A stretch of 64,000 nt of DNA from Escherichia coli (GCF_041886205.1 NZ_CP169029.1); one strand, 5' to 3'; positions 12,667 to 60,775 are shown, counted from the first letter of the stretch. Notes: generated by a model not told the origin, from the letters alone. A program made the numbers and translations.

Positions 12667-13881
12667 TTAGAACTGGTAGACTAAGCCCACAGCAACGATG
12701 TCATCGGTAGCGATGCCGTTGTTTGCGTAGAAGTCATCGTCGTTGTCCAGCAGGTTGATTTTGTAATCAACATAGGTGGACATGTTTTTGTTAAAGTAAT
12801 AGGTTGCACCAACCTCAACGTATTTAACCAGATCTTTATTGGTATAATGATAATTACCATTGTTGTACATTTCTTGACCACCTAAATCCTTACCTTTAGA
12901 TTGGAGGTAAGCAATTGAAGGACGCAGGCCGAAATCAAATTGGTACTGAGCAACAACTTCAAAGTTCTGAGTTTTGTTAGCGATACCACCGCCGCCAAGT
13001 TTCCCATCGGCTGAATGAGAGTCGCTGCTACCATAAGCGGTCATATTGCGAGTCTCTGCATACATTGCTGCTAAATATACATTGTTGGCATCGTATTTAG
13101 CACCAACAGTCCACGCTTCTGCAGTACCACCACCTGCATAGCTATTACCATAGAAATGATTGCCATCTCCATACCCACGAGCAGCTTGGTTATTGGAACG
13201 GTCAGAATTAGAGTAAGCAGCACCCAGACTTAAACCGAAGTCGAAGTCGTAGGAAGTAGACATACCGAAACCATCGCCATTTTCTTTAGCAAGGCTACGG
13301 CCATCTCCGCTGCCAGATCCTTCTTGGCCAAAGAGACTGTCACTGCCACTTTCATTATTACTCTGATATTGCAGCGCAAAGTTCAAGCCATCAACCTGAC
13401 CAAAGAAGCCATTGTTACGGTAGGTTGCAACACCGTTGGTACGACCGTTCATGAAATTGTCGGCACCAGCATAGGTATCGCCACCAAATTCTGGCAGCAT
13501 ATCGGTCCATGCTTCGATGTCATATACGACACCGTAGTTACGACCATAATCGAAAGTACCATTCTGACCAAAACCTAAACCTGCGAAAGCCAGACGGGTA
13601 GCAGAGTTATCTCCATCGCCTTCTGTGCCATTTGCTTGCAGGTTGTATTCCCACTGACCATAACCAGTGAACTGGTCAGCGATCTGAGTTTCACCTTTGA
13701 AACCGATACGGGCATATGACTTGTCGCCATCGCTGCCGGCATCATCAGAGAAGTAGTGCAGGCCCGCTACTTTTCCGTACAAATCCAGTTTATTACCATC
13801 TTTATTATAGATTTCAGCCGCATTTGCTGCGCCAGCAACTAATAACGCCGGGACCAGCATTGCCAGAACTTTTCTTTTCAT
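12667..13881 (-). CDS. yedS: General-diffusion outer-membrane porin of the OmpC/OmpF family, intact (404 aa from MKRKVLAML)
   Basis: Signal peptide [21 protein letters not shown], Gly/Asp/Asn/Tyr-rich beta-barrel composition, C-terminal ...VGLVYQF; SD AAGGGA before ATG at 13881. Confidence 0.85.
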
Positions 13882-14192
13882 TATGTATTCCCTTGTGATT
13901 ATAATCTTCATGAATATATCAATAAGTGCCGTTATCCAAAAAAAAGCACATTTGGATACTATTCTATGAAGTTCATTTTATTTTAAGGATTACATGTAAC
14001 AAATGTATTTAAAAGATTTCAAAATGTTTCTAATCTATTTAATATAATTCAGGATTATGAATTCTAAATATAAATATTCATGAAAATTATAAATGTATAT
14101 CAATATGTTATGAGTTGAGCGGAAGCATAGGGGGTATCAATGATTGTTGCGCCAAACGGCTGGTGTGATCACGCGCACATTAATGAAGGCAT

Positions 14193-14285
14193 AAAAAAAA
14201 GCCGGCATCATGCCGGCCCAAAAAATATAAACAAGACGATAAAAGGCTAATAACGGAAGCATCATGACACAGAATAATAAAAAGG
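14193..14285 (-). ncRNA. rseX: Candidate small RNA (RseX-like) ending in a Rho-independent terminator
   Basis: Minus strand: 7-bp stem GCCGGCA/TGCCGGC (14201-14217) followed by an 8-nt T-run. Upstream segment CGUUAUUAGCCUU is complementary (with G-U pairs) to the ompC RBS region as recalled. Position between yedR and yedS matches where rseX is reported in K-12. 5' end not determined. Confidence 0.45.
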
Positions 14286-57954: not shown

Positions 57955-58041
57955 ATGAAACTGCGCAAAATCCTGAAAAGTATGTTCAATAACTATTGCA
58001 AGACGTTCAAAGACGTACCGCCAGGCAATATGTTCCGATAA
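57955..58041 (+). CDS. azuC: Small protein AzuC (28 aa), coding part of the dual-function AzuCR/IsrB RNA
   Basis: ATG...TAA encodes MKLRKILKSMFNNYCKTFKDVPPGNMFR; below ORF-track size cut-off; followed by terminator. Confidence 0.85.
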   Translation: MKLRKILKSMFNNYCKTFKDVPPGNMFR

Positions 58042-58043
58042 CA

Positions 58044-58069
58044 AAAAACCTGCTCCGGCAGGTTTTTTT
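58044..58069 (+). terminator. Rho-independent terminator of azuC
   Basis: AAAAAACCTGCTCCGGCAGGTTTTTTT. Confidence 0.65.
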
Positions 58070-58155
58070 GTGTCCTGATGACGGTGGATGTGACTATCGC
58101 TGAAGATGTGAAGCCGCTACTATAACGGCTTTCAAAATGCTATCAGGAGTTTACG

Positions 58156-58485: not shown

Positions 58486-58989
58486 TCAATGCAGCTGGTG
58501 TGACACGACATTCAGAACATGTTGGTCGGTCTGCACAGGGCACATACCCGCAAGTTTCGCACTGCGCACTTCATCAAGAATGGTTTGCAGCAACAGACCA
58601 TCATGCTGCTGTTCTTTTTCCAGATCGCGCAGGAAATTGACGGTTGAATCATCATTCAGTTCTTTCGCTTCATCGGCTAACTGTGCCAACGTACTAGAAC
58701 GTTGCTCGTATTCTTCCATCGTTTTTTGGAACAGTTCTTCCAGAGAGTTCAGTTTTTCACCGGGAACATCAATGGCTTTAACGATGGGGGTAGCGCCGAC
58801 ACTCTTCATAAAGTTAAACATGCGCATCATTTGGGTCACATTACTCTGTGCCTGGGCGCGAAGGAAAGTGGCGGTGCCGTTCAGACTCTGTTCAGAACAC
58901 CAGTTACTCAGGTGAAGGTAGAGATTGGATGCGTAAAACTCGCGGTTCATTTGAGAGTTGAGTTTGAGAAGCATTCCAGCGGTTGCCAT
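58486..58989 (-). CDS. ftnB: Ferritin-like protein FtnB (167 aa)
   Basis: [61 protein letters not shown]... Confidence 0.93.
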
Positions 58990-59785
58990 ACCTAATATCC
59001 TTATATCCAGAAGTGGAGAGGTGCAAGATAAATCAAAACACCATAATTACTGTTTGCAGAATAATTCCTTTCTGCCGGTCCGAAATGTGATCGTGGAGTC
59101 AATTCTGACGATGATCTGAAATAAGAATAACGTCTGAACGGGTATAAGAAAATGCTTAAATCATCAAGTTTATATATTTTTACATTTCATTGATGAAATC
59201 AATGTAACTGCAATGAATTTTAATGATAGTGCTTTTTGTATCTTGTTGATATTAATCAATGAATTTGAATTCATGATGAAGTGATGATTTTATAAAACGT
59301 TTTTTCATTTTTGCGAGATGGCTCTCATTATACGTGTTCTGTTAATTAATGAGCACAGTGATAATTAATGACGAAATGAATGACGTGCATTTTCCACATC
59401 TTTGAGTTGCGGTTATTACACCATTTCAAAAACTCAACGCCAGGTAATGCGGCCTATTGACTGGTTAAAAAGAAGACATCCCGCATGGGTACCAAAGACA
59501 ACAAGGATTTCCAGGCTAATCTTATGGATTAATCTGCTGTGCATTCGACAATTTGTCTGACAAATTGGCTTTCCCTTATGTCTTTTCCCGCTAAATTTAT
59601 GCACGTTCTCACTGTAATTCTGCGATGTGATATTGCTCTCCTATGGAGAATTAATTTCTCGCTAAAACTATGTCAACACAGTCACTTATCTTTTAGTTAA
59701 AAGGTAATGCTTTGTTTTCCGATTAATTTAACGAATGTCATTCGTTTTTGCCCTACACAAAACGACACTAAAGCTGGAGAGAACC

Positions 59786-60775
59786 ATGCACAAATTTACT
59801 AAAGCCCTGGCAGCCATTGGTCTGGCAGCCGTTATGTCACAATCCGCTATGGCGGAGAACCTGAAGCTCGGTTTTCTGGTGAAGCAACCGGAAGAGCCGT
59901 GGTTCCAGACCGAATGGAAGTTTGCCGATAAAGCCGGGAAGGATTTAGGGTTTGAGGTTATTAAGATTGCCGTGCCGGATGGCGAAAAAACATTGAACGC
60001 GATCGACAGCCTGGCTGCCAGTGGCGCAAAAGGTTTCGTTATTTGTACTCCGGACCCCAAACTCGGCTCTGCCATCGTCGCGAAAGCGCGTGGCTACGAT
60101 ATGAAAGTCATTGCCGTGGATGACCAGTTTGTTAACGCCAAAGGTAAGCCAATGGATACCGTTCCGCTGGTGATGATGGCGGCGACTAAAATTGGCGAAC
60201 GTCAGGGCCAGGAACTGTATAAAGAGATGCAGAAACGTGGCTGGGATGTCAAAGAAAGCGCGGTGATGGCGATTACCGCCAACGAACTGGATACCGCCCG
60301 CCGCCGTACTACGGGATCTATGGATGCGCTGAAAGCGGCCGGATTCCCGGAAAAACAAATTTATCAGGTACCTACCAAATCTAACGACATCCCGGGGGCA
60401 TTTGACGCTGCCAACTCAATGCTGGTTCAACATCCGGAAGTTAAACATTGGCTGATCGTCGGTATGAACGACAGCACCGTGCTGGGCGGCGTACGCGCGA
60501 CGGAAGGTCAGGGCTTTAAAGCGGCCGATATCATCGGCATTGGCATTAACGGTGTGGATGCGGTGAGCGAACTGTCTAAAGCACAGGCAACCGGCTTCTA
60601 CGGTTCCCTGCTGCCAAGCCCGGACGTACATGGCTATAAATCCAGCGAAATGCTTTACAACTGGGTAGCAAAAGACGTTGAACCGCCAAAATTTACCGAA
60701 GTTACCGACGTGGTACTGATCACGCGTGACAACTTTAAAGAAGAACTGGAGAAAAAAGGTTTAGGCGGTAAGTAA
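59786..60775 (+). CDS. araF: L-arabinose ABC transporter periplasmic binding protein AraF (329 aa)
   Basis: MHKFTKALAAIGLAAVMSQSAMAENLKLGFLVKQPEEPWFQTEWKFADKAGKDLGFEVIK... Confidence 0.95.
   Translation: MHKFTKALAAIGLAAVMSQSAMAENLKLGFLVKQPEEPWFQTEWKFADKAGKDLGFEVIKIAVPDGEKTLNAIDSLAASGAKGFVICTPDPKLGSAIVAKARGYDMKVIAVDDQFVNAKGKPMDTVPLVMMAATKIGERQGQELYKEMQKRGWDVKESAVMAITANELDTARRRTTGSMDALKAAGFPEKQIYQVPTKSNDIPGAFDAANSMLVQHPEVKHWLIVGMNDSTVLGGVRATEGQGFKAADIIGIGINGVDAVSELSKAQATGFYGSLLPSPDVHGYKSSEMLYNWVAKDVEPPKFTEVTDVVLITRDNFKEELEKKGLGGK

Follow-up and report, generated by a model that had tools for sequence, protein, structure and literature searches.

Control through AT-rich DNA bound by H-NS has been described for two ferritin-family genes. 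Upstream of E. coli ftnA, silencing by H-NS is reportedly reversed by Fe-Fur (Nandal et al. 2010), and at Salmonella ftnB, H-NS binds and represses, expression is up in an hns mutant, and Fnr and Fur are both needed for full expression (Troxell et al. 2011, PMC3212961). In addition, FNR sites occluded by nucleoid proteins have been reported in E. coli (Myers et al. 2013, PMC3688515). In the araBAD/araC region, AraC direct-repeat half-sites are found together with a CRP site (araI1-I2, CRP). The published architecture of the araFGH promoter, in turn, reportedly has CRP next to RNA polymerase and AraC upstream, with a weak -10 and no -35.

Here, we describe the interval between ftnB and araF in a stretch of 64,000 nucleotides of E. 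coli DNA (NZ_CP169029.1; hereafter, the window). The interval is a divergent control region common to ftnB (leftward) and araFGH (rightward), and has already been studied. Like the ftnA upstream region, it is AT-rich, adjoins a ferritin-family gene and is covered by H-NS, the aerobic ChIP region of about 7 kb including ftnA itself; unlike that region, it contains no Fur box above chance, and its candidate anti-silencer is an FNR box that Myers et al. (2013) give as unbound, among their occluded sites. It shares with the Salmonella ftnB region an orthologous gene and a long AT-rich upstream spacer, but Salmonella retains a DJ-1/PfpI gene beside ftnB and has lost araFGH, and the distal spacers of the two do not align. 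The araFGH part resembles araBAD/araC in its AraC direct-repeat half-sites 21 bp apart and its CRP site; unlike in araBAD, the half-sites are read on the strand opposite araF, and, judging from a motif scan and from work by the Schleif laboratory, the CRP site lies between AraC and the core promoter. In E. coli K-12 MG1655, the same 796 bases stand between the same flanking genes with no annotated feature, and the differences from the window are all outside the interval.

We consider it quite likely that the interval is simply the known ftnB/araFGH control region, made long by the loss of a DJ-1/PfpI gene, with its spacer under H-NS. As the control region of a textbook organism it matters little in itself, and its working parts (the ftnB leader with its CsrA sites, regulation by Cpx, binding sites for AraC and CRP, cover by H-NS and a masked FNR box) are already published. 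The gain is twofold: the unusual length would have a simple historical cause, an ordinary gene loss in Escherichia that is not stated in the papers on ftnB and araFGH consulted here, and the spacer offers a clean local case of DNA whose sequence drifts neutrally without loss of AT-richness or length. For genome scans, "long and AT-rich" is thus no evidence of a hidden gene.

Borders, composition and ftnB-proximal elements of the interval

The interval (58990-59785, 796 bp) is free of genes, bounded by ftnB at 58486-58989 (-) and by the start of araF at 59786 (+). Its GC content is 34.8%, falling to 28.0% in the stretch 59160-59420, compared with a window average of 49.5%; the binomial standard deviation for 261 bases at 49.5% GC being about 3%, the AT-richness of this core is far outside chance, and only one further locus in the 64 kb, 13821-14201, holds a 261-bp stretch as AT-rich. 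The biggest open reading frame (ORF) wholly within the interval has 56 aa (59434-59604, -). The interval is also the longest feature-free gap of the window, a ranking that comes partly from our own ORF scan, since the window elsewhere is not co-linear with MG1655; three other ORF-free gaps of similar size emerged from this crude scan, all with tRNA or small annotated genes (yecU/yecF). The initial annotation, made from the sequence alone, had described an AT-rich 796-bp region upstream of araF, the longest intergenic interval of the window, with no ORF of 60 aa or more, and these statements hold, the ranking in the sense of a feature-free gap.

An alignment to the K-12 ftnB-araF spacer, proposed at that stage, gave identity at 796 of 796 bases (MG1655, NC_000913.3 1986129-1986924), and the RefSeq annotation of MG1655 between the two genes is empty. 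Identity to K-12, together with transcript data free of any additional product, had been named as grounds against further content in the interval; the identity is complete, and the transcript data described below are essentially of that kind. Among complete E. coli genomes, the interval was found in 5,417 of 5,426, with 90-100% identity (>95% in all except six). The surrounding window is less uniform: positions 1-50000 belong to an E. coli other than MG1655, the first 24 kb reach 99.7% in their best complete-genome match, which is broken into three pieces, and indels shift the coordinates relative to K-12 by about 2 kb in places, the K-12-identical araF-ftnB interval notwithstanding.

When compared with other genera by blastn, only 58990-~59200 and 59500-59785 align, so that the interval divides into two conserved flanks and a spacer (blocks A to C; Table 1). 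Identity to E. coli among other Escherichia is 92-97% in block A and 84-91% in block C.

Table 1. Features of the ftnB-araF interval, in window coordinates (strand given where noted)
Feature	Position	Strand	Description
Block A	58990-59195		ftnB leader and promoter; strongly conserved
ftnB 5' untranslated leader	58990..59117	-	128 nt; TSS-seq, sigma-70 ChIP-seq, CsrA footprint, Term-seq
Predicted leader hairpin	59056..59075	-	GCAGAA-AGGAAUUA-UUCUGC, GGA in loop; MFE and centroid folds agree
ftnB promoter region	59118..59195	-	Upstream of mapped start; -10 TATTCT at 59124-59129
CpxR-like box GTAAAAATATATAAA	59169-59183	-	Centre near -59; 1 mismatch to GTAAA-N5-GTAAA (motif scan)
Block B	59196-59499		AT-rich spacer, Escherichia only; divergence at or above synonymous-site rate
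AT-rich Escherichia-specific spacer	59196..59457		31.7% GC; within published H-NS ChIP-chip regions; no gene found
Perfect FNR consensus box TTGATATTAATCAA	59246..59259		TTGAT-N4-ATCAA, 0 mismatches; centre 135.5 bp upstream of ftnB start
Putative DNA just 3' of lost DJ-1/PfpI gene	59458..59499	+	Stop region and terminator hairpin, including CCCGCATGGG; nhmmer, MAFFT
Block C	59500-59785		araFGH control: two AraC sites, CRP site, promoter, leader (sites by motif); conserved across genera
Upstream AraC site (presumed araFG2)	59502..59539	-	Direct-repeat half-sites CAGCAGATTAATCCATA, TAGCCTGGAAATCCTTG; 1 + 2 mismatches to TAGC-N7-TCCATA, 21 bp apart
Perfect 9+1+9 palindrome	59549..59567		CAATTTGTC-T-GACAAATTG; between the two AraC sites; read from sequence
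Promoter-proximal AraC site (presumed araFG1)	59577..59614	-	Half-sites TAGCGGGAAAAGACATA, CAGTGAGAACGTGCATA; 2 + 3 mismatches, 21 bp apart
CRP site TGTGATATTGCTCTCC	59626..59641		2 mismatches to TGTGA-N6-TCACA; invariant or nearly so across genera
Predicted araFGH core promoter and araF leader	59663..59785	+	Weak -10 TAAAAC 59663-59668; ~111-nt leader; Shine-Dalgarno GCTGGAG

About 206 bp of the interval serve the ftnB leader and promoter, as established by published mapping. The ftnB start site carries 124 TSS-seq reads at U00096.2 1984821, corresponding to window position 59117 and a 128-nt UTR (Kim 2012 supplement), and the sole sigma-70 ChIP-seq peak in the interval, 1984820 (59118), lies one base from it (Myers 2013). 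Of four GGA motifs in the leader (58997-58999, 59005-59007, 59066-59068 and 59079-59081), three are CsrA binding sites, one overlapping the Shine-Dalgarno, as determined by footprinting on RNA +1..+152 (PMC6686035). The leader is not unusually structured overall (fold z = +1.1); its one hairpin with a loop GGA is predicted to adopt a shape typical of a CsrA site. The promoter block 59118..59195 is conserved across Escherichia and homologous to Citrobacter ftnB-proximal DNA up to ~59185-59205. ftnB is a known member of the Cpx regulon, and a sigma-E promoter has also been reported for it.

Term-seq 3' ends were mapped 69 and 26 nt upstream of the ftnB ATG, at 59058 and 59015 (-), and none elsewhere in the interval (Adams 2021). 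The end at 59058 would mean an RNA of about 60 nt whose terminus falls in the 3' arm of the hairpin with the GGA loop; since a U-tract is missing, processing, pausing or protection seems to explain this end better than an intrinsic terminator. This leader fragment is the only short RNA suggested anywhere in the interval. In one human isolate (L042, NZ_AP025214.2), an IS1 element occupies the ftnB leader at 59026-59034, with a 9-bp target duplication between CsrA sites.

Sequence drift and H-NS cover of the AT-rich spacer

The AT-rich spacer 59196-59457 has no similarity to other genera detectable by blastn. Within Escherichia, it is 51-55% identical to the other species and 82% to the nearest one; in these genomes, the fourfold-degenerate sites of ftnB and araF give 62-70% and 82%, respectively. 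The rate at which block B drifts thus equals or exceeds this neutral yardstick. Across Escherichia, the spacer nevertheless keeps its length (259-264 bp) and GC content (29-33%), and three short islands in it, TTGATA, TGATG and ATAAT, are invariant.

The initial annotation had suggested an unannotated small RNA or small protein as one possible content of this tract, a reading that length and AT-richness alone might favour and that we now consider very improbable. A -10-like GATAAT is present at 59360-59365, with an ATAAT core that is invariant in Escherichia, but the promoter scan found no sigma-70-like sites versus 3.4 expected, an Rfam search of the interval at a permissive threshold (E <= 1) gave no match, and the AT-rich part has no start site by TSS-seq, no sigma-70 peak and no Term-seq 3' end, in transcript maps that cover few growth conditions, all with H-NS present. 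Predicted fold energies of the spacer are like those of shuffled sequence (z-scores +0.47 and -0.62), and the divergence is neutral. The AT-rich part accordingly presents neither of the marks of a small RNA, that is, its own start with a defined 3' end, or conserved sequence or structure or membership of a known family. As regards a small protein, for which a frame intact in related species would be expected, every one of the six ORFs in 59170-59604 is interrupted by stops or frameshifts in other Escherichia, including where the DNA is still 82% identical, and the divergence at or above the synonymous-site yardstick points the same way. The small-ORF ribosome-profiling supplement of Stringer 2021 has no entry with these coordinates or gene names, a weak negative, and the ROSE supplement has none for the interval. 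A scan also returned two terminator-like hairpins, which we rejected: no 3' end supports either, and one falls within the conserved CRP/-35 area.

The suggestion of nucleoid-protein binding sites, or H-NS-bound DNA, fared better. H-NS ChIP-chip regions at U00096.2 1983947-1985830 (-O2) and 1982242-1989198 (+O2) (Myers 2013 Table S3, PMC3688515) both contain the whole interval, 1984153-1984948 in U00096.2 with a derived coordinate offset of +1976, so that the DNA is covered both aerobically and anaerobically, combining low GC content with published in vivo occupancy. The high-affinity H-NS motif TCGATAAATT is not enriched, with 1 match in the spacer versus 0.42 per 300 bp in the window. In the proposed mechanism, what matters about the spacer would be its base composition rather than any specific product encoded in it; H-NS would damp ftnB transcription and block stray transcription from the spacer, as the cases of Salmonella ftnB and E. 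coli ftnA suggest by analogy. Drift with retained AT-richness and length is as expected if H-NS binding depends on composition.

An extension of this explanation, which it overlaps more than excludes, is that the spacer is a working distal module of ftnB, in which activators such as FNR or Fur would bind within the AT-rich tract and oust H-NS, in the way reported for Fe-Fur far upstream of the paralogue ftnA. The Salmonella gene, Fnr- and Fur-activated, H-NS-bound and up in an hns mutant, speaks for such an arrangement, as do the perfect FNR box and the invariant islands, which include its left half-site. The box matches the FNR consensus, but its centre at -135.5 is an unusual distance for FNR activation, which operates near -41.5 or -61.5. 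Its occupancy is disputed: FNR was reported at ftnB by ChIP (Lemmens 2009), in conflict with the unbound listing of Myers 2013, where Table S6 (PMC3688515) predicts an FNR site at araF/ftnB, enters a dash for the FNR peak in wild type and names "H-NS ChIP-chip" as cover. Across Escherichia, invariance is limited to the left half (TTGATA); the right half is kept in E. coli and its nearest relative alone, and most relatives have no FNR box at the matching position. A Fur-box scan of the interval reached at best 12/19, matched by 87% of shuffles and hence not above chance, and the spacer as a whole diverges neutrally. Taken together, we regard a distal module as possible but doubtful.

A probable DJ-1/PfpI loss and the length of the interval

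The ftnB neighbourhood was compared across 38 loci, one genome per species. Six other Escherichia genomes have 789-800 bp between ftnB and araF, compared with 1246-1435 bp in most genomes of Citrobacter, Lelliottia, Enterobacter, Huaxiibacter, Silvania and Leclercia and 1101-1103 bp in two genomes that have a short ftnB-proximal spacer. The extra length in these relatives comes from an ORF of 185 aa, on the same strand as araF, with a Pfam match to DJ-1_PfpI (E about 1e-29; 3e-29). Of the 34 araF-bearing loci, 24 have this gene in the gap between araF and ftnB, decayed copies are found in four more lineages, and two Salmonella loci have the gene beside ftnB and no araF. The decay is in progress in three Citrobacter with internal deletions (L009, L016, L040) and in Leclercia adecarboxylata NCTC13032 (L038), which has a frameshift. 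The DJ-1/PfpI gene is evidently dispensable and has repeatedly been lost.

Between ftnB and DJ-1, the relatives carry a spacer of 260-559 bp (>370 bp in all but two) with 28-38% GC past the first 200 bp. Because these spacers diverge too fast to align between genera, the lack of similarity of block B to other genera is expected. On the right-hand side, cross-genus homology opens ~33 bp past the DJ-1 stop codon, inside the Citrobacter terminator hairpin. A nhmmer profile built from the DJ-1 gene and its flanks in 26 genomes aligns from interval position 490 (59479), with the envelope from 469 (59458), and the alignment opens in the terminator, not in the ORF; in a MAFFT alignment, CTGGTTAA is placed opposite the ...TGGTAA stop of Citrobacter with matching spacing. 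Tentatively, 59458..59499 is thus probably a remnant of the DNA downstream of the lost gene, an assignment made by alignment that finds little support beyond E. coli and the species nearest to it, as the stretch is not conserved in other Escherichia species.

The simplest reading of these comparisons is that the Escherichia ancestor lost the DJ-1 ORF by a near-exact deletion that fused two intergenic regions, which would account for the 796-bp length; that the gene was lost rather than gained is argued from parsimony over the 38 loci. The ancestral layout would have been ftnB, AT-rich spacer, DJ-1/PfpI on araF's strand and araF, and removal of the ORF, almost exactly, in the Escherichia lineage would have left, next to the ~206 bp that control ftnB and the 286 bp that control araFGH, two remnants: ~260 bp from the former spacer upstream of ftnB and DJ-1, and ~40 bp from around the DJ-1 terminator.

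Synteny places DJ-1/PfpI exactly at the interval, and the gene decays in place in the four genomes with deletions or a frameshift named above, which raises the alternative of a very old pseudogene, the AT-rich tract being what erosion has left of the gene body and not a spacer that survived a clean deletion. The position is right for such a pseudogene, but residual similarity to the ORF is missing: no remnant was detected in Escherichia by tblastn (best E = 0.39) or by the 26-genome nhmmer profile run with --max, and Citrobacter DJ-1 DNA has no match in the 5,426 complete E. coli genomes. The putative stop remnant lies ~466 bp from ftnB, a distance that fits a deletion, given 372-559 bp of ftnB-DJ-1 spacer in most relatives, and the 32% GC of the spacer matches the 28-38% of the relatives' upstream spacer. 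We therefore find an eroded gene body very unlikely.

AT-rich, H-NS-bound DNA is often foreign, and some strains have IS1 insertions in the interval, so that DNA taken up by horizontal transfer, or what is left of a mobile element, also comes into question. The spacer has no homologue in 50,697 phage records; its seven matches in a plasmid collection are all E. coli, three of them chromosome-sized and the others likely chromosomal too; and no repeat of it occurs elsewhere in the window. It has the same place and length in all sampled Escherichia species, is present with the interval in nearly all E. coli genomes, as counted above, and the relatives' spacer at the same position is equally AT-rich. 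A foreign origin is, in our assessment, extremely improbable.

On the preferred reading, gene loss followed by H-NS cover, one further consequence can be imagined: the spacer could retain an orphaned DJ-1/PfpI promoter, the conserved -10-like GATAAT (59360-59365) being one candidate, and with it the masked FNR box, and relief of H-NS would then produce a conditional, O2-responsive non-coding transcript running into the AraC sites and modulating araFGH or ftnB. We give this little credence. Expression of araF and yecJ is O2-dependent only in an hns stpA mutant (Myers 2013 Table S11, PMC3688515), which, for araF, is compatible with an orphaned promoter without showing it.

In Salmonella enterica subsp. 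diarizonae (L011), which has no araF, pieces of the araFGH control region, TTGTCTGACAA and ...TTTTCCGCTGAATTTATG, lie downstream of DJ-1; because these pieces persist, the comparison suggests that araFGH was lost there after the gene arrangement was established.

The araFGH control region and neighbouring observations

Judged by motif and conservation, araFGH control appears to fill all 286 bp of block C, 36% of the interval, in agreement with the earlier remark that the araFGH promoter needs only part of it. As expected of an AraC/CRP promoter, the predicted core promoter is preceded by a CRP site and by AraC half-sites in pairs, each pair with a 21-bp spacing. We take the segments 59502-59539, 59577-59614 and 59626-59641 to be araFG2, araFG1 and the CRP site abutting RNA polymerase, respectively, of Hendrickson and Schleif (1990/1992). 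The upstream site is conserved across genera and has a 15-nt identical run, ATCCATAAGATTAGC, in common with araI of MG1655, and the promoter-proximal site is nearly invariant in 35 genomes. From this geometry and the published architecture, the araFGH start would lie near 59675, which would put the CRP centre, 59633.5, at -41.5. The start-site data sets consulted come from cells grown without arabinose; under these conditions, a very weak start site (3 TSS-seq reads) was recorded at 59528 (+), inside the upstream AraC site. A leftward AraC-driven promoter beside the araI-like araFG2 was also considered and rejected, no usable -10 being found at the right spacing in E. coli or Citrobacter.

The palindrome between the two AraC sites has a core, TTGTCnGACAA, with a single match in the window against 0.09 expected. 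This core is kept in most genera, including the araF-less Salmonella, is lost in the C. freundii group and is degenerate in some Escherichia. The palindrome resembles GntR/FadR-type operators and is not known to be bound by a regulator.

In the araF leader, a 31-codon ORF (59707-59802, +) has AAGG ahead of its ATG and extends across the start of araF. All sampled Escherichia keep this ORF intact, but its ATG is missing in Lelliottia (L028). The conserved GGTAATGCnTTGTTTT in this leader may be a DNA or RNA element rather than coding sequence.

Outside the interval, a sub-threshold Rfam match to the enterobacterial sRNA STnc370 lies at 58037-58101 (-), between azuC/azuR and yecJ (33.4 bits versus a gathering score of 54; E = 0.057). 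A preprint describes a large deletion across otsBA, araFGH, ftnB and ftnA in evolved strains. In Ecol_542 (L043, NZ_CP018970.1), IS1 sits at the edge of the AT-rich spacer, with a breakpoint near 59192, and a deletion removes araFGH, otsB and part of otsA, so that ftnB now adjoins uspC-flhDC.
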